Positions 1,047 through 52,476 of a stretch of DNA of 59,397 nucleotides are shown here, in pieces (position 1 is the first letter of the stretch; each line of letters opens with the position of its first letter). The position numbers and the translations under genes were made by a program. The notes under the pieces were generated by a model. It did no database searches, was not told the DNA's origin, and saw only the letters and a program-made list of their open reading frames with translations. Source of the stretch: an uncultured Erysipelotrichaceae bacterium (GTDB lineage: Bacteria; Bacillota_I; Bacilli_A; Erysipelotrichales; Erysipelotrichaceae); the NCBI GenBank assembly GCA_902795865.1, contig CADBMV010000064.1, forward strand, positions 1-59,397, written 5' to 3'.

Positions 1047-2534
1047 CTAGTCTACATAGAGTATGTATTTATCATAGTAGAAAGAATGCTCACCAGCCAT
1101 ATAATTAAATTCATCATGTCCATACTTTTCTACTAAAGTCTGCTCATTAGAGAATAAATTGGTTCCTAAACCTAGTCTATTGCCATTCCACTTTATTCCT
1201 AAAGATGCGACTGTAGTTGGATAAAAATCTGCAGTGTTAAACGTTCTATTTGAAGATGGAGTTAGACCTTCTGCAGGGTTTATAAATACATAATAAGCTT
1301 TTCTAAAATAATCTGCAGGCATTAATTTTGCCCAATCTGTATCCATACTAGGATGATCTCCTACTATTACAATAGTTGTATTCTCATAGAAATCTTGTTG
1401 CTTAATCCATTCAATGAATTCATATGTGTGTCTGCTTGAACAAGCATATACATTAGCAAGGTTCTCATCATAATCGTCTTTACAATATTCACACTTATAA
1501 CCTGCTGCATGGTGCGAATCAACTGTAAGCATTGTGAAGTTAAATGGTTCATCTTTGCTTGAAAGTTCTAACAACTCTTCTTTTGCAAACTCAAATAATT
1601 TATGATCTTCATAACCCCACCATACATAATAATCTTCTGGGATTTTACCTTCTTGTTTTGCCCATAAATAATCATGTATTAAATAATTGCCATGTTGTGT
1701 AAAATAGTCTCTTCTTCCACCAAAAGAAGCATCAGAGCCTATTAATAACTCATTGGTATAACCTTCTTTTTCCAAGATTTCACCAATACTATAAGCACCT
1801 TTTAAAAACTTAGTCTCAGACATATATGAATTTCCATCAATTGGAATTAATAAGGCAATTCCACTAGTTTGCGCAATCATTGAAGATGCAGTCCAAGAAG
1901 CATTAGACATAATGTTATATCCTTTATTGTCATTAAAAGTAATGTTTTCTTCAGCTAGTTGATAAAGTTCTGGAACATAATTGTCAGGGAATGCTCCACC
2001 TTCATCAAAAGAATAATCAGCAATTTCTACAGATTCTAAAAAGATATATATTAGATTTCTTTTCTTCTCAGGAAATTCAAATTCTATTTGTCTAGGATCA
2101 ACATATTCATCTTCATATAATGTTGTACTAGTATTTAAATCATGAATGTATTGTCTCAAACCCATTCTTTTAGAAAAATATAAAAAGCTTATTGCAGTAA
2201 ATATGACACATATCAATATAATATTCTTTCTAATAAATAAATATGGTCTAAATTTATATTTATCAAAAAAACTAAATTCAAAATATGAATGCTTATTATA
2301 TAAGACATATGTAACAAATATACTTGCGAATAATGGCATTAAAATACACTGTATTAAAATACCTTTCACAAATTCAGAACCTGTACCTTTTGCAGGAACT
2401 AAAACATGAAAGATAATCTGTCCTATAGGATTTTCATCAAAAACAAAATTACTAAAAGTATAAATTGTACTAGTAATTAAAGCAAAACCAAAAAACAATA
2501 ATATGAATATTAAAAAAGCTTTACTTTTTTTCAT
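1047..2534 (-). CDS. LTA synthase / phosphoglycerol transferase family protein (sulfatase-fold ectodomain)
   Basis: 495 aa. About 4-5 N-terminal TM helices are followed by alkaline-phosphatase-superfamily motifs: IYIFLESVE, NASWTASSMIAQTSG, TVDSHH and VIVGDHPS. This is the LtaS/MdoB/GacH type. Confidence 0.8.
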   Translation of the reverse strand: MKKSKAFLIFILLFFGFALITSTIYTFSNFVFDENPIGQIIFHVLVPAKGTGSEFVKGILIQCILMPLFASIFVTYVLYNKHSYFEFSFFDKYKFRPYLFIRKNIILICVIFTAISFLYFSKRMGLRQYIHDLNTSTTLYEDEYVDPRQIEFEFPEKKRNLIYIFLESVEIADYSFDEGGAFPDNYVPELYQLAEENITFNDNKGYNIMSNASWTASSMIAQTSGIALLIPIDGNSYMSETKFLKGAYSIGEILEKEGYTNELLIGSDASFGGRRDYFTQHGNYLIHDYLWAKQEGKIPEDYYVWWGYEDHKLFEFAKEELLELSSKDEPFNFTMLTVDSHHAAGYKCEYCKDDYDENLANVYACSSRHTYEFIEWIKQQDFYENTTIVIVGDHPSMDTDWAKLMPADYFRKAYYVFINPAEGLTPSSNRTFNTADFYPTTVASLGIKWNGNRLGLGTNLFSNEQTLVEKYGHDEFNYMAGEHSFYYDKYILYVD

Positions 2535-2835
2535 CTTTTAATTCAACCTTCAGTTTTGTTTTTTTCTTAAATATAACAAACAAATATGTAGGAAGTATTG
2601 CGATTGCTAAAGCAAAAGCAAAATATTTAATATATGTCATAATATCTAATTCACTAAGATTTAATATAAACTCATTTCCTCTCATAGCTAATAAGAAGAA
2701 TATAAAAACAAGATTATTTATTAAACAGAATATTCCATAATAAAAGAAATAAACTATAGATTTTTTAGAATCATCAAAATGATAATATATGAATACAGAA
2801 ATTATACTAGGTATAAATAATATTAGAAATTCCAT
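2521..2835 (-). CDS. Small integral membrane protein, family unknown
   Basis: 104 aa with three hydrophobic helices and a Lys-rich C-terminus. AAGGAG lies 6 nt upstream of the ATG. It overlaps the downstream gene by 14 nt. Confidence 0.55.
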   Translation of the reverse strand: MEFLILFIPSIISVFIYYHFDDSKKSIVYFFYYGIFCLINNLVFIFFLLAMRGNEFILNLSELDIMTYIKYFAFALAIAILPTYLFVIFKKKTKLKVELKDEKK

Positions 2836-2881
2836 ATCTAACTCCTTTTAATACCTGTAAATTATAACATAATTAGCATTA

Positions 2882-4756
2882 TCAGTTAATTAGAGTATAA
2901 TCAATTCTAATTCTTTGGAATTTGCATGGCCATCTTCCCCAAGTAGAACCAAAGGCATAGCCTACAATTAATTCTTCATCGTCTACTATATGGCCAATAT
3001 TACTTTTAGAGATACCACAATTATGTGCATATCTTTCTATTTTAGTAGTTGTCCAATCTTTTTGTGTGAAATTTAAACCATCAGTAGAACTTAAAATAAT
3101 GAGTTGTGAGGATGCATCCATTCTATATTTAATCGCAAAAGCAACAAATCTATCTTTGTCTTCTATGTATGCTACATCAAAAGAATCATTTGAATTTCTT
3201 TGATACACAACTCCTTTATCTTCCATAGTTAATGGCCAATTCTCACTTAAATCGGAAATCATTAACTTAGTAGATGCAACTTTTGCATCATCATATGTGT
3301 AATAAATATATAATTGCTCGTCTTTAACCACAAAACTGATTTCACCTATTCCCCATGCACTTTTATCTTCATTAAAGGCAATGATTGGCTCAGGATTACC
3401 ACCCCATCCTTCACCATTCCATTTTTCAAAAGGACCATTAGGATTCTTACTTCTTGCAACAAAGGCAGAATTATAAGAACCATTTCCTGCATAATAATCA
3501 GTTGAGGTATAACCCATATAATAATAACCATTAAAGAATACTAATCCTGGATCACATACTGAACATTGATCTTTTGAACCAGCAGTAGGAGTTAAAACTA
3601 CTTGTTGCTTACTCCAAGAATAACCATCATTAGAATGAGAATATGTTATATAGTCCCATTGGCTTGAGTTATTACCAGGAGAAGAAATCCAAGCATCATA
3701 AGAACCATCTTCATTTTTCATAATGGATGGTCCATATCTATAAGATGAACCATTATAAAAAAGATAACCATCATCTATGTTGATTATCTTATATGTTTCA
3801 TTAGGTTCTTCATTTACTACTACAGGTTTTTTATCTGGTAGTAGATAATTTGTATATATTTGATCGACACCTATATTAAATAATTCATCTGCCCTTTGTT
3901 TATCATCAACAGAATGTGTTCCTACTTTAATTCCAAATCTATTAAATTGCTTAACAATATCTTCATTAACTAATTTTTCAGATATTGTCACATAACCCAC
4001 ACCACTTCTTGAACAAAAATTCGCAATATCTTCTATTTCAATTTCAGGTAGTTGATACATAGTATAAATAACAGATTTAAACTCATGTATGCTCATTAAA
4101 TAATCCAACATTCTTTCTGAATAAATCTGTGGGATGATTCTATTTAATACTTCTGCATTAACTTGTTTTGCATAGTTAACTAGTTGTGAAAACTGCATTC
4201 TAACTTTATATTCATCAGAATATTTAGAATCAGTAATCACATACATGTCTTTATGCTCATTTAATAAATTAACTATATCTTTATAATCTAATGTTGTTAG
4301 ACCATTACATATTTTAGATTCTTTAAAGTTTTTCAAACTATATTCAAATTCATCATCTTCAATCTTAGCTTGTTGTCTCCATAAATCTTCATCATGAGAA
4401 GCTATCATATAATAATCACTAGTTAAATCAAAGTCTACTTCAAATATTCTATGACCTTGTTCATAATTATGGTTAAATGCTTCTAATGAATTAGAATATG
4501 TATATTCATTTAATCCACCCATCGCATGAGCTACATATTTATTATCATTAACCCATGAATAATCAAAGTTATATTTTTTAGTATTTCTTTTATAATCGTA
4601 ATCAACTAGTTCTTCTATGTTATCAATGTGTTCTCTTAAATAATGATATTTCTCTTTAGCAAAAGAAATAACCTTATATCCTAATAAGGCACTTATTAAT
4701 AATGCGACTGCAATAACTACTACAATTGGTCTTAAAGTTCTGTTACCTATTTTCAT
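2882..4756 (-). CDS. Membrane-anchored glycerophosphodiester phosphodiesterase (GDPD) fused to a GH43/GH32-like beta-propeller domain
   Basis: 624 aa. Signal anchor IVVVIAVALLISALLGY. GDPD-like block HAMGG..NSLEAF..GHRIFEVDFDLT..ASHD. The C-terminal ~300 aa contain CDPGLVFFNGYYYMGYTS and a repeated aromatic-rich strand pattern typical of 5-bladed propeller hydrolases. Confidence 0.72.
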   Translation of the reverse strand: MKIGNRTLRPIVVVIAVALLISALLGYKVISFAKEKYHYLREHIDNIEELVDYDYKRNTKKYNFDYSWVNDNKYVAHAMGGLNEYTYSNSLEAFNHNYEQGHRIFEVDFDLTSDYYMIASHDEDLWRQQAKIEDDEFEYSLKNFKESKICNGLTTLDYKDIVNLLNEHKDMYVITDSKYSDEYKVRMQFSQLVNYAKQVNAEVLNRIIPQIYSERMLDYLMSIHEFKSVIYTMYQLPEIEIEDIANFCSRSGVGYVTISEKLVNEDIVKQFNRFGIKVGTHSVDDKQRADELFNIGVDQIYTNYLLPDKKPVVVNEEPNETYKIINIDDGYLFYNGSSYRYGPSIMKNEDGSYDAWISSPGNNSSQWDYITYSHSNDGYSWSKQQVVLTPTAGSKDQCSVCDPGLVFFNGYYYMGYTSTDYYAGNGSYNSAFVARSKNPNGPFEKWNGEGWGGNPEPIIAFNEDKSAWGIGEISFVVKDEQLYIYYTYDDAKVASTKLMISDLSENWPLTMEDKGVVYQRNSNDSFDVAYIEDKDRFVAFAIKYRMDASSQLIILSSTDGLNFTQKDWTTTKIERYAHNCGISKSNIGHIVDDEELIVGYAFGSTWGRWPCKFQRIRIDYTLIN

Positions 4757-6198: not shown

Positions 6199-7014
6199 TT
6201 ATTCTCCTTCGCTAGTTGGAATATTATCTATACCAACATAATAGAAAATATGATAATCTCCTATATTATTAATTAAAGCATATCCATGATTATTCGCAAC
6301 TTCTTCAGGATAAAATCTTCCATCATTTATTAAAAATTGATACCCATGAGAATGTGCATAATCAAAAAAATAATCATATTCTCCTGCAACCATTCTGTCA
6401 TAAACTTCTTTAACTTCACCATCAAAATGCGAAATATGCCCCATAATGTTTCTGCCATACATCTGTTTTATTTTTCCAGAACACTGTCTTAAGTAAACAT
6501 TTAATTGATAGTCGACAATTGCTTTTGGTTCTTCTTCAAGTTCAAGCATAACTTCTGCAACCTCTACTACTCCAGGAGGTAGTTTTTCTAGAGAAACAGT
6601 CTCAGTAAAACCTCCTGTTTCATATACTGTGGTTTTCCCATAGCTAATAATTGCGAAGCATGCAACAGCAAAAAGCAATATCCTTAATATATCGTTTTTC
6701 AATCTATTAGAAATACTAATAAATGTTGTCGCAAAAATAATATGTAATGAAAATACCCAAAATAATCTCCAATACATATATGTACGAATGTATACTTTGT
6801 CATATAAGATAGGATTTATTATAACTAGAGCTAAAGTTATTAAAGGAATAATATATTTTTTTCTTACTTCCTTTTCAAAAATCAACATATATACAACACA
6901 AATGATGGCCGGAATTAAAAACAGCTCATTGCCACGATGATAATACTTATTTATATGTTCTAGAATAATTTGAAACATATATTCCAAACGCTGAATGTAT
7001 TCTTCGCTAAACAT
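6199..7014 (-). CDS. Membrane protein with soluble C-terminal domain (possible C-terminal half of a bipartite GT-C-like enzyme)
   Basis: 271 aa: four TM helices, then a ~140-aa soluble domain. Its ATG lies 1 nt after the stop of the preceding membrane-protein gene (TAGTATG). Confidence 0.55.
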
Positions 7015-7015
7015 A

Positions 7016-8113
7016 CTATCTTAACCCCATCAAATAAAAATACAATTTATACAAATAATAATTTGGAATAGTAAATAATAATATTAATAATGTATGCCAT
7101 TTAAATTGTAATAAGCTATATATCACTGCAAAAACACCTATCATAATTGGCGCAATTACAATACCATTAGCACTCATAAAACACATTGCAAGATTAGTAA
7201 CAAAAATAGGAATCGCATTATAGATACTATTCTTTTTATAATAATCAAACATGCTTATATACATTATTGGTATTCCTGCAGATGCTAGCACAGCTTTACC
7301 TTGCCATAAACGATATAAAAATTTCATGAACACAGTATTAATCAAACCATCACCACGATCATTACCATACATCGCCATCAACAATATTAAAACTAAAAAA
7401 GAGCCTTGCATTATTGCGTTTTCTTTCTTTAACATTCTTCCAGCTAATAGCCACCAAGCACACATTACATAAATATATAAAGCTAAATCCATAATGCTAT
7501 GTGCCATCGTGACAACTTTTATTCCTGTAAATTTAGAAAGAGCAGCAATATAAACCCCCCAAGGAGAAACAACATCTTTATGATCTTCAGTCAAAATAAA
7601 ATTAGGTATGTCTTCTCCCGTTGCAGGATTGTTTAAATACATCTTATCGTATTCAAGCATATCTACAGACACAACCACAAATCTAGAATCATCATCATTG
7701 ACGTTTTGATATATGATAGTCAGTCTTAGAAAATACATGCAAAAAATTACTACACCAATAGTAAAAATAACTCTTAGATATTTTATGTCTTCTAAATCAG
7801 GAAAATCAAAATCAAAATCTTTTCTTATAATTCTTATAACTACTCCAATTAAAGAAAAAATTATAATAAACCAGAATAAAAAATAATAAACAAATGTAAA
7901 TGATTTAAAATTCATGATTGCTGGAACACATATAACTTCCATGACAGCAAACAAAAAAGTTAAACCAAAAACATAGTATTCTGGAATACTTTTCTTTCTT
8001 TTTAATAATATAGAAAAACTATGTCCTACAAACAGTGGCATAATTAACAAAACAAAAATACTTTTTAAAACTTGTCCTTGCGTTAAAACGCTAAAAAGTT
8101 CTTTTACGCTCAT
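7016..8113 (-). CDS. Polytopic membrane protein (possible N-terminal half of a bipartite GT-C-like enzyme)
   Basis: 365 aa with about 10 TM helices and an acidic loop NVNDDDSRF. No family recognised. Confidence 0.55.
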   Translation of the reverse strand: MSVKELFSVLTQGQVLKSIFVLLIMPLFVGHSFSILLKRKKSIPEYYVFGLTFLFAVMEVICVPAIMNFKSFTFVYYFLFWFIIIFSLIGVVIRIIRKDFDFDFPDLEDIKYLRVIFTIGVVIFCMYFLRLTIIYQNVNDDDSRFVVVSVDMLEYDKMYLNNPATGEDIPNFILTEDHKDVVSPWGVYIAALSKFTGIKVVTMAHSIMDLALYIYVMCAWWLLAGRMLKKENAIMQGSFLVLILLMAMYGNDRGDGLINTVFMKFLYRLWQGKAVLASAGIPIMYISMFDYYKKNSIYNAIPIFVTNLAMCFMSANGIVIAPIMIGVFAVIYSLLQFKWHTLLILLFTIPNYYLYKLYFYLMGLR

Positions 8114-11986: not shown

Positions 11987-13402
11987 TTATAGATATAAAG
12001 TAAACTTATCTTGATGTTTCTTAAACACATAAGTTCCAATAAATAGCATTGCGAGTGCAAATATTAAACAATAGATATATGAAATAGGTTCAGGTGAAAC
12101 ACCATCTATTAAACACTTTCTTAAATTACCAATGAAATGATATAAAGGATTAAATCTAACTACAAATTTATACTTATCAGGAATAATTTCTGCAGGATAA
12201 AAGATTGGTGTAGCATATTGCCAAATCTGAACCATCACTCCCCATAAGAATTGTGTATCTCTAAAAAATACCATCAATGTTGCAAGAAGCATCCCTGCAC
12301 CTAATGAGAAAGCTATTAAACATAACAAGAAATATAGAATCAACAATGTTGAAGCATGTAGCTTCAAACCCATTATTAAAGTGATTAATAATAGTGGTAC
12401 AAGTGAAATAGCTAAATTCACAGATGAAGATATAGTTCTTGAAAGCGGGAATATATATCTAGGAATATAAACCTTATTTATTAGATTTGAATTACCTGAT
12501 ATAGAAGTTAAACACATATCAGTTGTTTCTTTAAAGAAATTAAAACAAATAACACCGCTTAATAAGTACACAGGATAATTTTGTGTATCTGCTTTAAAGA
12601 AAGTAGAGAAAACCAAAAACTGTACTATCATCGTAAGAAGCGGATTCAAGAAACTCCACAACAAGCCAAATACAGATCTCTTATATTTTGATTTAAAATC
12701 TCTAGTAACTAATTGACTAATTAAGAATTTATATTTATCTATAGCTAATAAAGCTCTAACCAAATAATCGTGTTTATTATGACAATAGTTTCTATATGAT
12801 CTATATAAATATAAAGCAAATAGTAAACCAACACCTAACGCAAAATACCAATAGTATTGAGCAGCATATATCTCATCAACACCACTTACAGAAAAACATA
12901 GTGTTCCTTTCATGCCTCTACTATTAATGACAAGTATAGAATCATCTACATTCTTTCTCATCATAACTGCAACACCTTCATTAGGGTTACAATCAGATCT
13001 GATTTTTAATGTTAATAATCTATCTTTAACTTCTAAAGGTTTTTCAAAATTTATAAAAACACGATGCTGTTCTGGAATGTCTTTAACATTAAAACTCTTA
13101 CTATAAAGAATACTATTTCCATCTAATAAATCTATATATACTGTTCCACTACCTTCACGATAAAACTTTGTAAAGACAATAGCCATTGATTGGATTCTAT
13201 CAATTGATGGTCTAAAAAATTGCTTAACTTCAACACCTTTAACTATTTCATCAGTTACAGCATCAGCTTCAACCATCACTATATTGTTAATTGAATCTTT
13301 ATATTTTAATTGATCACCTAGTAAAAAATAAAAAGATGCAGCTAATAGTACATATAGCGCCATAAAGATTAAATATATTTTTCTAATCTTTTCTTTATTC
13401 AT
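11987..13402 (-). CDS. ABC-2 type permease (Wzm/TagG/RgpC-like) with an unusual ~200-aa N-terminal TM-ectodomain-TM extension
   Basis: 471 aa. The C-terminal ~270 aa form a six-TM ABC-2 permease (LISQLVTRDFKSKYKRSVFGLLWSFLNPLL...). The N-terminal extension is paralogous to the ORF at 13405..13941. Confidence 0.85.
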   Translation of the reverse strand: MNKEKIRKIYLIFMALYVLLAASFYFLLGDQLKYKDSINNIVMVEADAVTDEIVKGVEVKQFFRPSIDRIQSMAIVFTKFYREGSGTVYIDLLDGNSILYSKSFNVKDIPEQHRVFINFEKPLEVKDRLLTLKIRSDCNPNEGVAVMMRKNVDDSILVINSRGMKGTLCFSVSGVDEIYAAQYYWYFALGVGLLFALYLYRSYRNYCHNKHDYLVRALLAIDKYKFLISQLVTRDFKSKYKRSVFGLLWSFLNPLLTMIVQFLVFSTFFKADTQNYPVYLLSGVICFNFFKETTDMCLTSISGNSNLINKVYIPRYIFPLSRTISSSVNLAISLVPLLLITLIMGLKLHASTLLILYFLLCLIAFSLGAGMLLATLMVFFRDTQFLWGVMVQIWQYATPIFYPAEIIPDKYKFVVRFNPLYHFIGNLRKCLIDGVSPEPISYIYCLIFALAMLFIGTYVFKKHQDKFTLYL

Positions 13403-13404
13403 AT

Positions 13405-13941
13405 TTACTCAACTACAGAAAAACAAATAGATCCTTTCTGCTTTCTATTATTAAACCAATAATTTGTATCAACATTTTCACTAACCATCAAAGCTAAACC
13501 AGTATTTTCTCCATTTTCAGAATATATCTTTATAGTTAATTTAGCATCTTTAACATCTCTTAATATTCCATTTGGTTCAATAAAAACACGATGTTGATCT
13601 TCAACTTGTGTTACTGGAATGATAGTTCTTGCTAATGAATTGTTGCCATTTAGTAATTCTAATACTAGATTTACTCCCTCAACATATTGAAGTCTTGTAA
13701 AGACAATTCCAATATTATTTATTGTATCTGTTGTACAAATAAAATCCTGTCTAACACTAACTCCTTTAGAAATCATATCTGTGGCTTTAGTTGCATCTGG
13801 CATTGTTGTAACATCAATTTCTGTAATCACTTGCCCACCATTAGCAGGTGTTGAATTTCTTCCAAACATAAACCAAAATCCCAACAAGACAAATACAGCT
13901 GCTAAAACAACAATAAAAGTCAATAACTTCTTATTTCCCAT
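13405..13941 (-). CDS. Signal-anchored ectodomain protein, paralog of the permease N-terminal extension
   Basis: 178 aa with one N-terminal TM helix. Matched blocks against the permease extension are KGVSVRQDF/KGVEVKQFF, IGIVFTR/MAIVFTK, EDQHRVFIE/PEQHRVFIN, LTIKIYS/LTLKIRS and KGSICFSV/KGTLCFSV. Confidence 0.65.
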   Translation of the reverse strand: MGNKKLLTFIVVLAAVFVLLGFWFMFGRNSTPANGGQVITEIDVTTMPDATKATDMISKGVSVRQDFICTTDTINNIGIVFTRLQYVEGVNLVLELLNGNNSLARTIIPVTQVEDQHRVFIEPNGILRDVKDAKLTIKIYSENGENTGLALMVSENVDTNYWFNNRKQKGSICFSVVE

Positions 13942-13974
13942 AACTATTATATTTTATCATTATTAAATATTTTC

Positions 13975-14886
13975 TTAAATATAGCCCAAATAAACTAATA
14001 CTCTAAAAAATAGATCATTGATTGTATTAGTTTTAAAACCATCATATTTTAATAGCTTCTTTTTTAAATTAGAATCACTTCTATAATTAGCTACAAGATT
14101 CAATAATTCTTTCTTGTCATCATCTATTTCGTCTTTATATACATTCAATAACGACTTAGCAGTATTGCTTCTATAATTCTTAATATTCCCATTAACAAAT
14201 CTATTTACTCTTCCAGCAAATTCTTTAAACTTATTAGAAGTCATACCTATTTCATTAGAACCATGTTGACGATAGTACATATGAGAACTATTATCTAGTA
14301 TCATCTTTCCAAACATACATATCACTTTATGTATTATTGCATCATGAATCAAAAAATATTCTTTATTTAAATCATATTTAACTATTTTCTTTCTTGCTTC
14401 ATTATTAAACACAAATGTACAACCTGGAGCTGTATGATATATCAAAGAATGTGCAAAATCAGAATAATTATATAAACTTGATACATTAGAATCTATAGGA
14501 TTTAAATCTTTATCAGTTAATGTGTATTTACTGCAATATAGTAATGGAATGTTGTTGTCTTCTTTTTCTAATGAACTTATTGCGGTAGATAATTTATCTT
14601 TAAACCACACATCATCTTGATCACACAACGCATAATAATCAGCTTGCTCACAATTATTTATTAATTCAAAGAATGATTTTGCAGGTCCTAAATTATTACC
14701 ACAATAATATTTAATAAAATTATGTTCAGAAGCATATTCTTCTAAAATATTAACAGTGTCATCTTTAGATCCATCATCTCTTATATAAATTTGATCAGGA
14801 ACTAATTCTTGATTTAATAAAGAATCTAATTGTGCTCTTAGATATTTCTCTCCATTATATGTAGACATTAAAACAATTAGTTTCAT
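13975..14886 (-). CDS. GT2 family glycosyltransferase
   Basis: 303 aa with MSTYNGEKYLRAQLDSLLNQ, IRDDGSKDDT and CDQDDVW (DxD region). Confidence 0.85.
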   Translation of the reverse strand: MKLIVLMSTYNGEKYLRAQLDSLLNQELVPDQIYIRDDGSKDDTVNILEEYASEHNFIKYYCGNNLGPAKSFFELINNCEQADYYALCDQDDVWFKDKLSTAISSLEKEDNNIPLLYCSKYTLTDKDLNPIDSNVSSLYNYSDFAHSLIYHTAPGCTFVFNNEARKKIVKYDLNKEYFLIHDAIIHKVICMFGKMILDNSSHMYYRQHGSNEIGMTSNKFKEFAGRVNRFVNGNIKNYRSNTAKSLLNVYKDEIDDDKKELLNLVANYRSDSNLKKKLLKYDGFKTNTINDLFFRVLVYLGYI

Positions 14887-15983
14887 TTTAAAACCTCACT
14901 AATAATTTCATCACAATTCTTCATAAATACTTCTTTAGAGAAATTATTATTGTATAAATCATATATATTTGAATTATTATTTCTCATATTTATTATTTCA
15001 CTACTATTTAATGTTGTGTTTTCATTAACATTAATACCAACTTTATAATCATTCACAAAATTCCAAGTGTCTGCTTTTATATTATTAATAATTGGTAAGC
15101 CGTATTTAAAATAATCGATACACTTCATAGTAAGGCCAATATATAAGCCATCTTTATACATATTAATTCCTGCATGACACTTACTCATTAATTCGCTTTT
15201 TTGTTTTTCTTCATTGACAACTCCATGATCTATTACATAACAAATTCTAGAAAGTTTTTCTATCATTTCTTTTTTCTTTTCACCGCTTCCTATAATATGT
15301 AAATCTGCAGGACTATCACATGTGGAAATGATTCTATATATGGCATCAATATCAATAATATTGTTTATAGATCCTAAATAGCATAAAGATAGTCTATTAT
15401 TATCTATTTCATTATTATTGACTACTTTGATATTATCTTTTGACCAATATAGTGTCTTAATATTACCTTTATATTCTTTAGATAATATTTCCTGATACAT
15501 ATCACATTCAGTGGTTAAACAATCAGCACAATCTATATTATAAGTTCTGTAGTTTCTCCAAATACTAAGCGGTGGTATGTTCTTACTAAGTTTAATAGGT
15601 AAAGATTCAGGCCACATGTCTATTACATCAACAATAATCTTTACATTTTTATTCTCTTTTTTATATTTTTTAGCTTCCTTCAATAAAGAGTTTGCTGGTA
15701 TCATTAACCAAATTAAATCAGGTTTTTGTTTTCTAATTAAATCAAAAGCATCTTTAGAAAACTGTATATGAGAATTAATTCTATCTAATGATAAATTTTT
15801 CATATATTCTTTTGTTTTGATAAGTGTGTAATTGTTTTTGTTTTCTTTTCTTTTGGTTTTATTCGCATGAGAAAAATCAGTGCTTATAACACTGACATCA
15901 TAGTTTCTTTTTGTACATGTTTCATAAACAAAATTAACTCTTTGATCATTTGATTCGAAGCATGTAACGATTGTAACTTTCAT
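14883..15983 (-). CDS. Putative GT-B (GT4-like) glycosyltransferase
   Basis: 366 aa. The C-terminal half (LCYLGSINN..HIIGSGEKK..KYGLPIINN) resembles a GT4 nucleotide-sugar-binding domain. It overlaps the downstream GT2 by 4 nt. Confidence 0.58.
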   Translation of the reverse strand: MKVTIVTCFESNDQRVNFVYETCTKRNYDVSVISTDFSHANKTKRKENKNNYTLIKTKEYMKNLSLDRINSHIQFSKDAFDLIRKQKPDLIWLMIPANSLLKEAKKYKKENKNVKIIVDVIDMWPESLPIKLSKNIPPLSIWRNYRTYNIDCADCLTTECDMYQEILSKEYKGNIKTLYWSKDNIKVVNNNEIDNNRLSLCYLGSINNIIDIDAIYRIISTCDSPADLHIIGSGEKKKEMIEKLSRICYVIDHGVVNEEKQKSELMSKCHAGINMYKDGLYIGLTMKCIDYFKYGLPIINNIKADTWNFVNDYKVGINVNENTTLNSSEIINMRNNNSNIYDLYNNNFSKEVFMKNCDEIISEVLK

Positions 15984-16007: not shown

Positions 16008-17993
16008 TTAATTAACAAACGTATAAGACAAGATATAAACTATTACTTCAAACATTAATAATATTTGTGCAAATATTAAATATTTATCAAACTTCTTTGG
16101 TAAAGATATTTTAGAATTATTAAATATTGCAAAGAAGTATGGAAGAAGTGGTGAGAAGTATCTTCCTTGAATACCTTCTATCATTTGCGAGTCAGTATTT
16201 GTCCATCCTACTAGCATTCCAAATAATGTCATTAATCCTGCACAAGCAGAAAGGAAGATGAATGATGCTTTTAAAGGAATAGATTCTACATAATCTTCTT
16301 TTCTAAATGAAGTAACAAATAGTAATAATGGTAATGCTTGAACTATTGGTAGAGGAAGTATTAAATTTAATGCACACATTGTTCTACCAATTGAACTATA
16401 GAACCATAATTTCAAAGAATATCTAATTGTATATATAAATAGATTAAGTGTTTCTAAAGGATGTTGTAAAACATACGTAAAAGTATATGGATCATTATTT
16501 GGAGTTGGCAAAGTATTGCTGATGATATTTGTTTCAGCACTTGCTACCCAACCAAGTTTTCTCCAAATATGAATTGCAATTCTATGATATATAGCATTAT
16601 ATATTTCTCTTATTCCCATCATATTTATTATCAAGAAGGCAAATATCTTATTTCTTCTTGAGCCAAATCTTTCACTTGGAACAAATATATATAACAGAGC
16701 AAATACACTATAAACTATCTTTGCAGGAGCAAGAATCCATGAGCCAATTGTCACTACTAACATTTCAGGAATTGTCACTCTTTCTTCAACGAATATCCAT
16801 TTTAATAAATATGAGATAGTTATAAATGTTAAAGCAAATATAAAGCCATCATATGAATATGATGCTGCCTGTTGAATAAACATAGGCATACATGCAAGCA
16901 TTCCAAATAATACTTTATGTATTGGAGTTTTCTTTATTGATAAATAGATACATAATGCGTAAAAACATAGTGCAGTAAATCTACCTAAATAAAACTCTAA
17001 TAATACATTAAGACCTAATACTCTACCTATTGTTGCACCAATTGCTTGAGGAACATAACAAATTTTATACATGTTATATGGATCATGAATGTCAATTTGT
17101 GTTTTATTCACATCAGCTGGCCCAAATAATTCTTCTACAACTCTTCTATATGCATCTTGTGAATTTTTATAACCCATAAACGAATCATAACTAACATATG
17201 TTTCATCTACTGTAGTTGCATTAGAAAACATCATTTTGTTAGATACTAATAAAGTTCTGTGATAATGTCCCATTTCATCTGGAACAGATAACGGTGTAAT
17301 AATAAACATAAATATCATTCCTAATACCATTACCATTACTACAAAGAAGTTTTCATATTTAGGTTCAAATAATAACAACCAAATAAATAAGAAACTTAAT
17401 AATGAAATAACAAATACTAAAGTTGTATTAGAAAAGAATTCTAATTTATTATCATCCATTAAATATCTAATACATAATGCATTTTCATTAACTTTATTAT
17501 TAATAGTTAGTTTTGCATTATTTAATTCACTATCGATTGTTAAATATACACCAACAGCTTTACCTTTAACACAATTAGAACTTAATGTAACTTTAATTGT
17601 TTGTGCACTTAATCTTTGATTTAATGCAACTGTATAAAAAGATCTATCTTGAATATTAGATACATTGATATCTTCATTAGCATAAATGGTGTTGTTATTT
17701 GCGCTACTTATAGTTATGTTTAAAGTTCCTGTATTTTTTCTAGCATAAGTAACTAAACAAACAGAAACTGCATTTGTACCATCTTTTACAAACATTGTTT
17801 GACTAATGGTAGTCTTATCATCAATTTCTACAGTTTCATCTTTATCAAAATTACCATATGATCTTTTACCTAATGTTGGATTATAGTTTATCAATGTTAA
17901 AACAACAGTCACAATCCACAATAAAGAAAATACTAATAATAGTATTTTGTTTTTCTTGAAGTTTGTTTTTGCTTTTTCTATTAATCTATTCAT
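16008..17993 (-). CDS. GT-C-like polytopic glycosyltransferase (DUF2142/GacL-like) with N-terminal anchored ectodomain
   Basis: 661 aa: signal anchor, a ~150-aa ectodomain, then about 12 TM helices with the acidic loop motif PDEMGHYH. It lies downstream of a GT2 plus small-membrane-protein pair. Confidence 0.6.
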   Translation of the reverse strand: MNRLIEKAKTNFKKNKILLLVFSLLWIVTVVLTLINYNPTLGKRSYGNFDKDETVEIDDKTTISQTMFVKDGTNAVSVCLVTYARKNTGTLNITISSANNNTIYANEDINVSNIQDRSFYTVALNQRLSAQTIKVTLSSNCVKGKAVGVYLTIDSELNNAKLTINNKVNENALCIRYLMDDNKLEFFSNTTLVFVISLLSFLFIWLLLFEPKYENFFVVMVMVLGMIFMFIITPLSVPDEMGHYHRTLLVSNKMMFSNATTVDETYVSYDSFMGYKNSQDAYRRVVEELFGPADVNKTQIDIHDPYNMYKICYVPQAIGATIGRVLGLNVLLEFYLGRFTALCFYALCIYLSIKKTPIHKVLFGMLACMPMFIQQAASYSYDGFIFALTFITISYLLKWIFVEERVTIPEMLVVTIGSWILAPAKIVYSVFALLYIFVPSERFGSRRNKIFAFLIINMMGIREIYNAIYHRIAIHIWRKLGWVASAETNIISNTLPTPNNDPYTFTYVLQHPLETLNLFIYTIRYSLKLWFYSSIGRTMCALNLILPLPIVQALPLLLFVTSFRKEDYVESIPLKASFIFLSACAGLMTLFGMLVGWTNTDSQMIEGIQGRYFSPLLPYFFAIFNNSKISLPKKFDKYLIFAQILLMFEVIVYILSYTFVN

Positions 17994-18333
17994 CCTTTTT
18001 GTCTTCTAATAGTTTCTTTAAAGATGCAATCTCATAATTTAAAATTGTTATTTCCTCATTATTCTTACTAATTCTAAGATACAAATAGAAAGTCAAAATA
18101 TATAGTAAGAATATTGTAATTAAGAATACTGCATTAGATTGAGTTTGAATTCCTAAAATATTTGTTACCCACAACATAATAGATGGAAACAAAGAAATCA
18201 CAACCATACCAATAGCCCATAATATCCAAATTATGGCATATCTGATATTCATCTGATTCTTAATGATATTCCATAATACAAATACAAGAACCAAAACTGA
18301 AACAACTAATAATAAAGTTTGTAAATTGTTCAT
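17986..18333 (-). CDS. Small membrane protein, DUF2304/GacJ-like partner of the adjacent GT2
   Basis: I moved the start to the second ATG (18333), which has AGGAG 5 nt upstream, directly after the TAG stop of the GT2. About 115 aa: three TM helices plus a charged C-terminal helix (LKKLLEDKKDE). Confidence 0.55.
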   Translation of the reverse strand: MNNLQTLLLVVSVLVLVFVLWNIIKNQMNIRYAIIWILWAIGMVVISLFPSIMLWVTNILGIQTQSNAVFLITIFLLYILTFYLYLRISKNNEEITILNYEIASLKKLLEDKKDE

Positions 18334-18341
18334 AATTTCTC

Positions 18342-19010
18342 CTACCATTGCACAAATAGAATACTTAATATTTCTGCAACCATATATTTGACTGTTTTAA
18401 ATGGACTAGCAAAATAACTAACTCCACCTTGTCTTTCTAACATTTCAACTTGCACTTCTTTAACTTTATAGCCTTTTTTTAAAATGTGACATAACGCATC
18501 AGGCTCAGCATAGTAGTTCATTCCTTTAGAAAACTCTTCAATTACTTTTCTTCCTAATGCTCTCATGCCACTAGTTGGATCATAAACTGTTTTACCTGTT
18601 TTTAGCTTAATAAGTCCACATATTAATCTAGAACCTATCATCCTTAAACTAAAAGGCTTTTTATCAGTTACAAATCTACTACCAACCACATAATCATAGC
18701 CCTTTTCTATTTCTTCAACAAGCAAATTCACCTTATCAACAGGATGTTGGCCATCACCATCAACATTGATAATACAATCATAGTCATTGTCATATCCATA
18801 CATAAAACCAATTCTAGTAACTCCAGCTAGTCCAACATTAACACTTAAATCTAAATGATTGTATTTATTCTTTTTTAAAATATTAGCAGTGTTATCACTA
18901 CTACAATCATTAATAACAAGATAGTCATATCCATATGACTTTATCTTTTCAACAACTTTTTCAATGTTTTCTTCTTCATTAAAAGCTGGAATAATCACTA
19001 GTGATTTCAT
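18342..19010 (-). CDS. GT2 polyprenyl-phosphate glycosyltransferase (DPM1/GacI/CsbB-like catalytic domain, no TM)
   Basis: 222 aa with IIPAFNEEENI, VINDCSSDNT and NVDGDGQHP. Confidence 0.8.
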   Translation of the reverse strand: MKSLVIIPAFNEEENIEKVVEKIKSYGYDYLVINDCSSDNTANILKKNKYNHLDLSVNVGLAGVTRIGFMYGYDNDYDCIINVDGDGQHPVDKVNLLVEEIEKGYDYVVGSRFVTDKKPFSLRMIGSRLICGLIKLKTGKTVYDPTSGMRALGRKVIEEFSKGMNYYAEPDALCHILKKGYKVKEVQVEMLERQGGVSYFASPFKTVKYMVAEILSILFVQW

Positions 19011-49319: not shown

Positions 49320-50096
49320 CTAATGAACTGCATCATATACTTTTATTACTCTTTCAAGTAATGCCTCAAATTCATCTAATTTAACCATATTAGGACCATC
49401 AGATAAAGCATTATCTGGGTCTGGATGTACCTCAAAAAATAATGCATCAGCTCCTGCAGCAACTGCAGCTTTAGCTAAAGGTTCCACATATTCTCTATTA
49501 CCACCAGTTACAGTTCCCTTACCACCTGGTTTTTGTACAGAATGGGTTGCATCAAACACTACAGGATAGCCTAGTTTCTTCATTTCATAAATGCCTGTCA
49601 TATCCACAACTAAAGTATTATAGCCAAAGCTATTTCCTCTTTCACAAAGCATTATATTTTTATTACCAGTTTCTTCTAACTTAGTAACTACATTCTTCAT
49701 ATCCCAAGGAGCTAAAAATTGTCCCTTTTTCACATTAATTAACTTACCAGTTTTACCAGCTGCTTCTAATAAATCTGTTTGTCTACATAAAAACGCAGGT
49801 ATTTGAAGCATATCACAGACTTCAGCTGCCTTTGATGCATGCCAAGGCTCATGTATATCAGTTACAATCTTTACACCAACTTCATCTTTAACTTTCTTTA
49901 GTATTTTTAAACCTTCTTCAATACCAGGCCCTCTAAAAGAAGTAATAGAAGTTCTATTAGCTTTATCAAAAGATGATTTAAAATATAAATCTAAATCTAA
50001 CTTATCAGCTATTTCTTTTAATCTTTTAGCTTCTTTTAATACTAACTGTTCAGATTCTATTACACATGGTCCTGCAATAAGTATAAACTTAGCCAT
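49320..50096 (-). CDS. kdsA: 3-deoxy-D-manno-octulosonate 8-phosphate synthase, metal-dependent type
   Basis: 258 aa with [10 protein letters not shown] (Cys at the metal-ligand position), [18 protein letters not shown] and [22 protein letters not shown] upstream. Confidence 0.95.
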
Positions 50097-50832
50097 AAAT
50101 GACCTCCATTAATTCTTCCACTTCTTTAACTTGTTCAGGAGTATCAACTCCTACAGTATGATATTTAGTTTCTTTAACTTTAATTTTATATCCATTTTCT
50201 ATAGCACGTAATTGTTCTAAGGATTCAGATAACTCAAGTTCAGATTTATCCATCTTAGAATATTTCATCAAAAACCACTTCTTATAACCATAAGCACCTA
50301 TATGCTTATAATGATTGGTTTTTCTATTTTCGTCTCTTTCATAAGGAATAGTAAATCTAGAAAAATATATAGCATCATGATTAATATCATCTATTACTTT
50401 TACTACATTAGGATTATCTAATTCTTCCTTCTTATCAATTAATACTTTTAAAGTTCCAAAATAAACATCTTTATCTTCAAAAACTGAAACTAGATCTTCA
50501 ATCATTTCTTTTCTAAAAGTAGGCTCATCCCCTTGAATATTCAAAATGATATCTTCATCATCTAATTTCAATATTTCAGCACATTCCGCAAGTCTATCTG
50601 TTCCACAGGTATGCTTATCAGAAGTCATCAATGCTTTACCATTAAATGATTCAACACAATCATATATTCTAGAATCATCTGTAGCTACATAAACTTCATC
50701 AACTTTATCGCACTTCAAAGCATTTTCATAAACCCATTCAATCATAGGTTTTCCTGAAATAATAGCTAAAGGCTTACCAGGAAACCTAGTAGAACCATAT
50801 CTAGCAGGTATAATTACAATAGTTTTCATCAT
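50089..50832 (-). CDS. kdsB: CMP-Kdo synthetase (3-deoxy-manno-octulosonate cytidylyltransferase)
   Basis: 247 aa with [17 protein letters not shown] and NIQGDEP. Confidence 0.93.
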
Positions 50833-50866: not shown

Positions 50867-50887
50867 AAATCACCATTTAGGTGATTT
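50867..50887 (-). terminator. Intrinsic terminator after the 529-aa membrane-protein gene
   Basis: On the minus strand: AAATCACC-taaat-GGTGATTT, followed by TTGTCTATTT. The left arm overlaps the TAA stop. Confidence 0.55.
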
Positions 50888-52475
50888 ATGATGTTAAGGA
50901 TTTTAATTGTTCATAGCTATCGAAGATATATAAAGTTCTATAGCCATCATTATACTTAATAAATCTGCTTACATCTTGCTTAAACTTAACTTCTTCATAA
51001 TCTTCTTTAATTAAGAATAAATATACTTTGCCTGTTGCATGTCTAGTTCTGTGTTCTTTAGATTGCAACCACACTGCAATATCATCAATATTACCATTTC
51101 TAAATACCCAAGTTTCAATTTCGCCATTAGATAATTCTGTAAGTATATTATTACCAGACCAGTGATCTTGAGAGTATCCATTATAACAATTATTCTTAAT
51201 CAAAATATCTCTTATTTCTGGCATTATTGCATATGGATTATTATCAGCTCTATAACGTATTTGAAATCTTGTATTTATAGCTAAAAACATCACCACAAGC
51301 ATAAGCATTATACATTTTTGCCAATCAATTTTAAATCTACTTAAAAAGATTCCTACAATAAATGCACTATATACTGATACAGGTAATAAATATCTATCTC
51401 GATACCAAGTATCAGTAAATGTGAATAATAAACTTATTATTAATGCTGCAACAATAAAATACATTAATATAAACTTTTCATATTTCTCATATTCTTTATA
51501 TTTCATAATCATATGAATTAAAGCAAAATTAAATATCACAAAGAATAAAGCAAATAATGGTTTAATAATTATTTGAATTGGAATAAACGCAAATAAGTGA
51601 TCAGCTTGATAACCTAAAGCATATAACCAACCATTTATTACTGTAGCTAGTTGTTCAAAAGTAAATGGTGCATAGAATACTTCTAATCCTCCAGATTGGA
51701 AAGAATATCCCAAGTTTCTTAATACCTTGCCATTAATTAAAGCACCTATAAATCCTGCAGCAAAAGTTAAAATTGCAATTACTATTAATTCAACATATTC
51801 TTTCTTAAATTCAAATTTACCTTCTTTTAAATTATCTAATTGATTAAAGAAGTAATACATAACAGCTGCAACTACCACAGGCATATAAGTCAAGAATACT
51901 AGTCTTGCTCCTTCTAAACCTGCTCCTAATGCCAATAACATCAATACAACACTTTTAATTATCTTTTTATTTCTGTTTAATTCTGAATGAATAGATATTA
52001 ATAAACCCATAGACAAAAAAGATATAACAATATGCGGTATATAACATGAATCCAAAGTTACTACCTTGTAATAATCTTTAGATATTGTTCCTACAATCAT
52101 AAAGCCAATCCAAGGAATGTGTTTCATATTTAATTGTCTTGCAAGATAGTAATAACTTAAAAACAAGATAATAATTAATATACCCATACCTACCATTCTT
52201 ACTGTTAGCCAATTATCAGTAATTAAAAATAAAGGCATGAATATTAAATTAGTATTTAATACTCTAATTTCTGTTGAATAATACCAGTTTTTAGAAATAA
52301 TTGCTTTTTCACTAGCCAATAATTTAGCTAATACAAGTTCACTAGACATATCAGATTCCATTGAATAATATAATCTAGGATAGATCTGAAACATCATATA
52401 TACAAAAAACAAAGCCAATACAATATAGCCTATTAAATCAGAGTGTTTCTTAAAATAATCAAAGTATTTTTTCAT
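50886..52475 (-). CDS. GT-C-like polytopic membrane protein with C-terminal soluble domain
   Basis: 529 aa. Acidic loop MESDMSSELV after TM1, about 12 TM helices, and a ~130-aa C-terminal domain. No specific family recognised. Confidence 0.5.
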   Translation of the reverse strand: MKKYFDYFKKHSDLIGYIVLALFFVYMMFQIYPRLYYSMESDMSSELVLAKLLASEKAIISKNWYYSTEIRVLNTNLIFMPLFLITDNWLTVRMVGMGILIIILFLSYYYLARQLNMKHIPWIGFMIVGTISKDYYKVVTLDSCYIPHIVISFLSMGLLISIHSELNRNKKIIKSVVLMLLALGAGLEGARLVFLTYMPVVVAAVMYYFFNQLDNLKEGKFEFKKEYVELIVIAILTFAAGFIGALINGKVLRNLGYSFQSGGLEVFYAPFTFEQLATVINGWLYALGYQADHLFAFIPIQIIIKPLFALFFVIFNFALIHMIMKYKEYEKYEKFILMYFIVAALIISLLFTFTDTWYRDRYLLPVSVYSAFIVGIFLSRFKIDWQKCIMLMLVVMFLAINTRFQIRYRADNNPYAIMPEIRDILIKNNCYNGYSQDHWSGNNILTELSNGEIETWVFRNGNIDDIAVWLQSKEHRTRHATGKVYLFLIKEDYEEVKFKQDVSRFIKYNDGYRTLYIFDSYEQLKSLTS

Positions 52476-52476
52476 C

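Follow-up and report, generated by a model that had tools for sequence, protein, structure and literature searches.

An unannotated protein domain is encoded repeatedly in an envelope-glycan locus on contig CADBMV010000064.1 (assembly GCA_902795865.1) of an uncultured Erysipelotrichaceae bacterium, of which the stretch from position 1 to 59,397 of the forward strand was analysed and is referred to as the window. Judged from sequence comparison, a single domain family occurs three times in this locus, namely as a free protein with a membrane anchor, as an N-terminal cassette of the permease of a Wzm-type ATP-binding cassette (ABC) exporter, where the domain is flanked by two transmembrane (TM) helices, and as a corresponding cassette ahead of a DUF2142 protein, i.e., a glycosyltransferase (GT) of the GT-C-like extracytoplasmic type. 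The exporter core is a typical representative of the Wzm/TarG/KpsM superfamily, and the locus, too, is a common Rgp/Gac-like cluster; the novelty lies in the cassette itself, its breadth across the Bacillota and its sharing among exporter, GT-C enzyme and free paralog.

The relation between the first two copies is evident from pairwise alignment. BLASTP aligned the free open reading frame (ORF) of 178 residues with permease residues 1-176 colinearly from residue 1 (E 7e-27; of 180 positions, 37% are identical and 56% positive), and profile-profile comparison of the free family with the permease N-termini returned a probability of 100% (E 5.5e-53). The sequence-only reading of this DNA had described the small ORF as a TM anchor plus an ectodomain homologous to the permease N-terminus, which is borne out by this alignment and by AlphaFold2 (AF2) modelling, and all six sequence blocks that it had quoted were recovered in the BLASTP alignment. 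Its claim that the domain is duplicated in the locus stands for the free and the permease copy, which tblastn identified as the only strong copies in the whole 59-kb window, but the count for the locus has to be raised to three as the GT-C copy is added. The free gene and the permease gene are separated by 2 nucleotides (nt) only, counted from the TAA stop codon of the former to the ATG of the latter, a spacing which suggests that the permease gene is translationally coupled to the free gene; upstream of the free ORF's own ATG (window 13941-13990, minus strand) no clear or strong Shine-Dalgarno motif was found.

The third copy locates to the N-terminus of the DUF2142 protein (661 residues), which matches Pfam PF09913 at residues 223-618 (139 bits) and is polytopic with several hydrophobic segments, whereby residue 223 is preceded by a charged tail and two TM helices with a domain of ~150 residues between them. 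Direct BLASTP of the free ORF against this protein was not significant (E 0.31) and profiles were needed to identify the relationship: the free-family profile matched the single GT-C N-terminus with a probability of 78% (E 1.8e-5), while a profile of seven GT-C N-terminal sequences was matched by the free profile with 97.3% (E 2.3e-11) and by the permease N-terminal profile with 98.3% (E 1.5e-14; both hhalign). All profile alignments of free, permease and GT-C copies are colinear over about 157-159 columns. A hidden Markov model (HMM) derived from the free and permease sequences recognised within the window the permease (E 4e-69), the free protein (7e-65) and the GT-C enzyme (6e-06), and matched the GT-C N-termini of 18 further loci and the window with E 1e-4 to 2e-12; vice versa, an HMM derived from the GT-C N-termini alone recovered 73 permeases.

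The ectodomain is predicted to be extracytoplasmic in both fusions, a prediction which follows from the charge bias across the second cassette helix (TM2) and from the alignment of the subsequent segment with Wzm. Across 70 permeases, the mean number of lysine plus arginine residues was 0.46 in the 15 residues before TM2 and 3.54 in the 15 residues after it; comparing the N-terminal tail with the stretch after the first helix (TM1), the respective numbers were 3.2 vs 2.3 for the permeases and 5.4 vs 2.4 for the GT-C enzymes. The segment following permease TM2 runs into the part aligned by Foldseek with the solved Wzm chains, and solved Wzm structures begin with a cytoplasmic interface helix. 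The outward-facing orientation that had been proposed from the positive-inside rule is hence supported, as a prediction. A two-helix cassette keeps the N-in topology of whatever follows and is thus portable, and the fact that it leaves the downstream topology unchanged explains how it can be placed ahead of two unrelated membrane proteins.

The AF2 model of the free protein, computed from a 32-sequence alignment, possesses a mean predicted local distance difference test (pLDDT) score of 92.4 and consists of the N-terminal helix, a low-confidence linker and ~ten strands within residues 62-177. In the AF2 model of the permease, the beta domain (pLDDT about 85-90) is enclosed by two helices ahead of the helical core, as had been read from the sequence earlier and as the BLASTP alignment likewise indicates; its last strand ends at residue 177 and TM2 starts at residue 179, leaving essentially no linker. 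As modelled, the ectodomain appears to be an all-beta, jelly-roll-like sandwich of ~130-140 residues that belongs to no recognised family. Pfam and NCBIfam scans returned sub-threshold noise only (DUF3098 on the TM helix, HisKA_2 and a WD_0033 repeat), so that the domain is as unrecognised as the sequence-only reading had stated, and a profile search of PDB sequences with the ectodomain gave nothing meaningful (best E 0.1). Accordingly, Pfam, NCBIfam and the PDB profile search revealed no sequence-profile membership in the carbohydrate-binding module (CBM) families CBM6/35/61/32 and their like. The Foldseek neighbours in the PDB are weak (E 3.7e-3 for the best to 3e-2, TM-scores 0.35-0.55) and comprise PHR domains, CBM6/35/61/32, the BT0996-C CBM, the carbohydrate-binding domains of BcsB, LecB and BC2L-C lectins and phage tail proteins, while the BFVD neighbours are generic phage and giant-virus jelly rolls. 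The comparison with CBMs, which had been proposed along with a possible glycan-binding role, hence yielded a resemblance to CBMs and lectins, but a weak one (E at least 3.7e-3). A sortase-like or L,D-transpeptidase-like enzyme, an idea prompted by an invariant Cys and a QHR motif, was considered and rejected, as the Foldseek matches include no such fold, the Clostridia copies have not conserved His and Arg and some GT-C copies lack the Cys.

Downstream of the cassette the permease is conventional. Pfam ABC2_membrane (PF01061) was identified at residues 228-430 with 73.6 bits (gathering cutoff 26.9), and Foldseek, queried with the whole permease model, the core of which is of only moderate pLDDT, matched the Aquifex aeolicus Wzm chain 7k2t_B (29% identity, E 1.8e-10, target-normalised TM-score 0.79) and furthermore S. 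aureus TarG, M. abscessus Wzm and KpsM. With scores below the NCBIfam equivalog levels (65.1 vs 380 bits for galactan Wzm/RfbD and 54.2 vs 300 bits for KpsM), the permease is assigned on its sequence to the Wzm/TarG/KpsM superfamily, with no named equivalog. The ATPase gene adjoins the permease gene directly downstream, and its product (249 residues) contains ABC_tran as its sole Pfam domain and aligns end to end with the 244-position profile of the galactan Wzt/RfbE type, which holds the nucleotide-binding domain only; this is its best NCBIfam match (E 2.4e-61), below the equivalog cutoff. Neither Pfam nor NCBIfam revealed a beta-sandwich domain of ~150-200 residues after the nucleotide-binding domain, i.e., a Wzt-type carbohydrate-binding domain (CBD), and the ATPase is thus minimal in the sense claimed earlier. 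The partner ATPase was found to be short in each of the 82 relatives' loci with a Wzt match, with a median length of 246.5 residues, whereby a single 337-residue ATPase probably reflects the choice of the first possible start codon.

The distribution of the cassette was followed by a scan of species genomes that used two core peptide patterns and a permease alignment and represented each species by a single genome; it identified 297 relatives, the best 80 loci of which were kept. A scan with a small alignment (A1) identified no relatives. The best 80 of the 297 relatives match nearly all over permease residues 1-471, and within this set hmmsearch located the domain to the N-terminus of every complete permease except that of locus L059 (E 1e-16 to 1e-69). 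Hosts of the fused permease are Erysipelotrichaceae, Oscillospiraceae, Lachnospiraceae, Faecalibacterium hattorii, Oscillibacter valericigenes, Pseudoflavonifractor, Faecalispora sporosphaeroides DSM 1294, Christensenellaceae and Sedimentibacter. The survey of Wzm homologs for such an N-terminal extension, which had been recommended earlier, hence showed the extension to be widespread in the Bacillota and not peculiar to the source locus, the nearest relatives of which are Erysipelotrichaceae and Solobacterium metagenome-assembled genomes from ruminant guts, identity among the genome-collection loci being 63% at most. The fused permease is found in different pathway contexts: rml, RgpF or WsaF genes are present in the loci of Erysipelotrichaceae and some Clostridia, while many Clostridia loci encode a WbbM-like DUF4422+GT8 protein, a DUF4422 protein and a UDP-galactopyranose mutase, genes which indicate a galactan-type polymer. 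Where the contig is long enough to show it, loci with a free paralog carry the GT-C copy, too; in most Clostridia loci the domain is present on the permease only, with no second carrier within 7 kb.

Two of the Clostridia loci, L046:2835-10139 of Faecalibacterium hattorii and L061:4718-11174 of Faecalispora sporosphaeroides, combine a GT2, a DUF4422 protein, the extended Wzm, a short Wzt and the WbbM-like DUF4422+GT8 protein, with a UDP-galactopyranose mutase additionally encoded in L046; we take this gene set, encoded here by Gram-positive gut anaerobes, to resemble the Klebsiella D-galactan I pathway. A further locus (L003:5243-11637, Clostridia) encodes an SLH protein and a ligase-like Wzy_C protein of 820 residues together with the extended permease and its short ATPase, contains rml genes and one for a WsaF-type rhamnosyltransferase but no free paralog, and looks like a candidate S-layer or secondary-wall glycan pathway.

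The free form is rare: close matches in 90% clusters number four, and clustering at 50% identity yields 44 family representatives, mostly of 170-180 residues, a few matches being permeases or fragments; F26, A50, F81, H117, R118, G148, G170, C173 and F174 are invariant in this family. Altogether 46 distinct free-form sequences with 30-80% identity and a conserved length of about 170-180 residues were identified, which form a single clade and share invariant residues. One match of 1545 residues (P0072) is a repeat-rich SLH-like surface protein sharing a short repeated motif only and was treated as spurious. A maximum-likelihood tree of 139 domain sequences requires only one origin for the free forms, which are nested in a group (SH-aLRT 98) that otherwise holds only 18 permease domains; the permease domain of the source locus lies inside this group, its nearest tree rows all being Erysipelotrichaceae, while the GT-C copies form one clade with a support of 100. 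On the evidence of this tree the free paralog branched off the permease copy once and is restricted to the Erysipelotrichaceae; it would have arisen as a partial duplicate of the permease 5' end and was kept since. A metagenomic free form of 207 residues (P0066) retains the second TM helix, its chain running from TM helix through domain to TM helix and then to a stop, and seems to represent a form halfway from the permease cassette to the free protein with its single TM helix.

Conservation extends across all carriers for a set of polar motifs, i.e., E, QxF, RxNxG, E/D and GxxCF, with E52, Q61-x-F63, L92, E111 and G166-x-x-C169-F170 as broadly shared residues (permease numbering). The TYxRxNxG motif is common to the GT-C copies and the Clostridia permease copies and was found to be altered in the Erysipelotrichaceae permease and free copies. 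Among the relatives, the Erysipelotrichaceae permease of locus L059 (L059:6908-7888, plus strand; 326 residues) possesses a core that is 69% identical to that of the source-locus permease; this locus still encodes a GT-C enzyme with a domain copy and has no free paralog.

As to function, our tentative preference is that the ectodomain may serve as a membrane-proximal module handling the exported glycan or its lipid-linked end. Positioned on the outer membrane face directly beside the exporter exit, it would act as a CBM-like module for the exported undecaprenyl-pyrophosphate-linked polymer and would catch or hold either the chain as it emerges or its lipid-linked, conserved reducing end, and keep it near the membrane. 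A GT-C enzyme equipped with the same module could then decorate the chain before its ligation to the wall, and the free paralog, coupled to the permease gene, would add copies of the binding module. A handling role is favoured since the fold belongs to a class used by CBMs and lectins, since the fusions pin the domain to the membrane surface, since comparable sandwich domains are part of other membrane glycan machines such as BcsB and since the same permease family with its conserved polar positions serves chemically different polymers. CBM-like domains also accompany the EmbA/B/C GT-C enzymes. Furthermore, according to PMC9574508, characterised relatives of the two fusion partners have polyprenyl-linked glycans as their substrates at the outer leaflet. 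The ligand would rather be a feature common to these pathways than a specific repeat unit, because the same fused permease occurs in rhamnan- and galactan-type loci and the polar motifs are found in all carriers. Several observations weigh against such a role: the ectodomain resembles CBMs only weakly in structure (best PDB E 3.7e-3, TM-scores about 0.4-0.55), sugar binding does not follow from a jelly-roll fold as such, conservation of the QHR motif is limited to the Erysipelotrichaceae copies, and the L059 permease retains both cassette helices with an 11-residue loop (ARKDLVFTNTY) in place of the ectodomain. Provided that the L059 transporter works, this loss makes the ectodomain seem dispensable for export, and it is probably an accessory that can be lost and that export does not need.

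The sequence-only reading had further suggested that the module could replace the Wzt CBD in the recognition of finished chains or in length control. The short partner ATPases are compatible with this idea, but the domain is predicted on the opposite side of the membrane and is not tied to one polymer type, and the presence of the fused permease in loci for chemically different polymers argues against the recognition of one specific finished chain. A more far-reaching proposal, which we consider rather unlikely, holds the cassette to be a new and widespread extracytoplasmic receptor or ratchet of CBD-less type V exporters in Gram-positive bacteria that would grasp the lipid-linked polymer where it leaves the channel and, by way of the identical modules on the GT-C enzyme and the free paralog, physically hand the chain over from export to decoration; if true, it would be a substrate-channelling device without counterpart in the studied Wzm/Wzt, TarGH and KpsMT systems.

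The main rival of glycan handling is protein-protein docking, whereby like domains would pair with each other, or bind a common partner such as an LCP ligase, and so assemble an export-decoration complex without touching the glycan. Docking is doubtful rather than improbable: it would account for the same domain being present on three proteins of one pathway, for the translational coupling of the free gene to the permease gene and for the co-occurrence of free paralog and GT-C copy, and the fold neighbours include PHR domains and phage tail jelly rolls, which for the most part mediate contacts between proteins. However, these co-occurrences all lie within one syntenic lineage and are not independent, and the many Clostridia loci with a permease copy only point to a role within the exporter itself, with which homodimeric pairing above the channel would still fit. 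As a further alternative, the domain might be an external gate or a lipid-carrier release device of the exporter, i.e., it would cap the channel or guard its lateral gate and control reorientation or release of the undecaprenyl-pyrophosphate head group instead of holding polymer. That the domain sits on two extra TM helices without linkers, pinned to the membrane surface, that its motifs are conserved irrespective of polymer type and that the partner ATPases are always CBD-less would agree with gating, which nevertheless remains quite unlikely, as it poorly explains a free single-TM paralog with a flexible linker or a copy on the GT-C enzyme, and as the natural ectodomain deletion in L059 suggests that the exporter can manage without it.

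Binding to the wall, be it to peptidoglycan or to existing wall polymer, would position exporter and GT-C enzyme at sites of wall synthesis and finds some ground in an extracytoplasmic CBM-like fold in Gram-positive-type envelopes; it was judged improbable, given that the fusions hold the domain at the membrane surface without linkers, far from the wall, and that Pfam and Foldseek revealed no similarity to LysM, SH3b, SLH or PG_binding. Both gating and wall binding are less likely than docking. For the free ORF, finally, it is conceivable that it is a decaying remnant of a partial tandem permease duplication with no function of its own, considering that it equals the first 176 residues of the permease, lies immediately upstream of it and lacks a strong Shine-Dalgarno motif. 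This explanation has very little in its favour: the 46 distinct free forms of one clade, diverged to 30-80% identity, have kept their length and their invariant residues, the AF2 model is confident (pLDDT 92) and synteny is conserved across species. Many diverged orthologs, a fixed length, invariant residues and a confident fold together speak for a gene that is not a dead remnant.

Among the known systems, the exporter shares core fold, an adjacent Wzt-type ATPase and an ABC-transporter-dependent glycan locus with the WzmWzt O-antigen exporter of A. aeolicus (PDB 7K2T/6M96/6OIH), with TarGH, with mycobacterial Wzm-Wzt and with KpsMT. Unlike the solved Wzm/TarG/KpsM permeases, which comprise 248-270 residues and match the C-terminal half of the model only, ~207 extra residues precede the core here, and a TM-ectodomain-TM cassette at the N-terminus is missing from all solved permeases matched by Foldseek. 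The source-locus ATPase, in turn, lacks the C-terminal CBD that is part of A. aeolicus and E. coli O9a Wzt. This Wzt CBD is, like the domain described here, a beta-sandwich accessory of a type V glycan exporter, but it is cytoplasmic, resides on the ATPase and recognises the chain-terminal cap, whereas the present domain resides on the permease and is predicted outside; the Wzt CBD is absent from the top 50 Foldseek matches of the ectodomain. With CBM6/35/61 and the BcsB domains of cellulose synthase the ectodomain has in common that it is modelled as an all-beta sandwich, predicted outside the membrane, on nascent-polysaccharide machinery; unlike them, it has no sequence-family membership, and its structural scores are weak (E at least 3.7e-3).

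The locus resembles the Rgp/Gac/Cwps rhamnose-rich pathway of streptococci and lactococci (RgpC/D; GacI/J/L or WpsA/B/J) in possessing rmlA/C, several GTs, an ABC exporter and the combination of GT2, DUF2304 and DUF2142; an RgpF match is absent from the window and present in relatives. For this ABC-transporter-dependent pathway, in which a GT-C enzyme decorates the exported chain outside the membrane, the relevant passages of PMC9574508 and PMC9746298 give a description, and the passages searched in these two sources mention neither an ectodomain on RgpC nor a domain shared by exporter and GT-C enzyme. The free protein is comparable to WpsH/Wzz-type co-polymerases in being a small membrane-anchored accessory with an external domain, encoded in a cell-wall polysaccharide locus beside a DUF2142 enzyme, as is the case for WpsH (passages of PMC9574508). 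However, Wzz-type (WpsH-like) polysaccharide co-polymerases are described as having a large external domain, helical for the most part, between two TM helices, whereas the free protein has one TM helix and ten strands and is a paralog of the exporter N-terminus, not Wzz-like. A literature search found no description of an ectodomain on Wzm, RgpC or TagG.

On the surface of Gram-positive bacteria, wall polysaccharides made by ABC-transporter-dependent pathways are prominent structures and serve as phage receptors, and to our knowledge the fate of the chain between exporter exit and decoration or wall ligation is hardly described so far. A conserved domain that is predicted to face outward on the exporter of many gut Clostridia and Erysipelotrichia, including Faecalibacterium and Oscillibacter, and that in Erysipelotrichaceae is also present on the decorating GT-C enzyme, offers a concrete handle on this post-export step. 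Natural controls exist as well, since one relative has its ectodomain deleted and the free forms have a single TM helix or, in one case, two. A database family entry for the domain is merited, as the permeases are annotated as 'ABC transporter permease' only and the free proteins carry no annotation.

Table 1. Features of the cassette-bearing genes and their neighbours in the window (aa, amino acid residues; nt, nucleotide positions).
Feature	Position	Strand	Basis
Free anchored paralog, 178 aa	13405..13941	-	ORF; AF2 model
Free paralog TM helix, aa 4-27	nt 13861-13932	-	AF2
Free paralog beta-sandwich ectodomain, about aa 45-178	nt 13408-13809	-	AF2; low-confidence linker between helix and ectodomain
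Permease ORF, 471 aa	11987-13402	-	ORF
Permease N-terminal TM-ectodomain-TM cassette, aa 1-207	12782..13402	-	BLASTP to free ORF; AF2; TM2 charge bias
Cassette TM1	nt 13304-13396	-	AF2 helix 3-33
Cassette ectodomain, aa 34-177	nt 12872-13303	-	AF2 strands
Cassette TM2	nt 12782-12868	-	AF2 helix 179-207
ABC-2 (Wzm/TarG/KpsM-type) permease core, aa 208-471	11987..12781	-	Pfam ABC2_membrane; Foldseek
Minimal Wzt/TagH-type ATPase, 249 aa	11225..11974	-	Pfam ABC_tran only
Third, divergent cassette copy (TM-ectodomain-TM, aa 1-210), DUF2142 GT-C N-terminus	17364..17993	-	hhalign; HMM
DUF2142 polytopic core of GT-C-like extracytoplasmic glycosyltransferase	16008..17363	-	Pfam DUF2142 residues 223-618
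GT2 (222 aa) + DUF2304 small membrane protein (120 aa)	17986..19010	-	Pfam Glycos_transf_2, DUF2304
GT2 (303 aa) + GT4-like (366 aa) cytoplasmic glycosyltransferases, between GT-C and free paralog	13975..15983	-	Pfam

Envelope-glycan genes fill the window, which has a G+C content of ~27% overall, and nearly all of them lie on one strand. Around the cassette-bearing genes the order runs from the GT2, DUF2304 and DUF2142 genes via the GT4-like and GT2 genes to the free ORF, the permease and the ATPase, followed by two large GT1/GT4 proteins, a DUF6077 protein and, farther along, rmlA and rmlC. Synteny revealed that the order of a 177-residue gene, permease and ATPase is conserved in relatives, as is the GT2/GT4-like order between the GT-C enzyme and the free paralog (L001 and L002). 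The GT2 (222 residues), DUF2304 (120 residues) and DUF2142 genes are consecutive, as in decoration systems of the GacI/GacJ/GacL or WpsA/WpsB/WpsJ type, one of which they would hence putatively encode; the GT2 and DUF2304 proteins as a GacI/GacJ- or WpsA/WpsB-like pair would supply the polyprenyl-phosphate sugar donor to the GT-C enzyme. The roles of homologous GT2, DUF2304 and GT-C components are reviewed in passages of PMC9574508. Taken as a whole, the locus is a cell-wall polysaccharide cluster of the ABC-transporter-dependent kind from an Erysipelotrichaceae-like Firmicute, comprising rml genes, cytoplasmic GTs, Wzm/Wzt and a decoration module of GT2, DUF2304 and GT-C.

Elsewhere in the window, two large consecutive ORFs of 529 and 609 residues (50886-54306, minus strand) in the glycan region gave no Pfam match at E 1e-3, and the gene of the DUF6077 membrane protein (365 residues) is followed after 1 base by an ORF of 271 residues without Pfam match (6199-8113, minus strand). 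Beside the rml genes, a protein of the Sulfatase/LtaS family (495 residues) and a GDPD-domain protein of 624 residues with a weak GH130-like match are encoded (1047-4756, minus strand), which could be enzymes for polyol-phosphate decoration or turnover of the wall polymer. Adjacent genes for a KdsA-like DAHP_synth_1 protein (258 residues) and a KdsB/NeuA-like cytidylyltransferase of the CTP_transf_3 family (247 residues) were identified at 49320-50832 (minus strand), a pair which suggests a Kdo-like or other ulosonic acid in the surface polymer of this Gram-positive-type organism.

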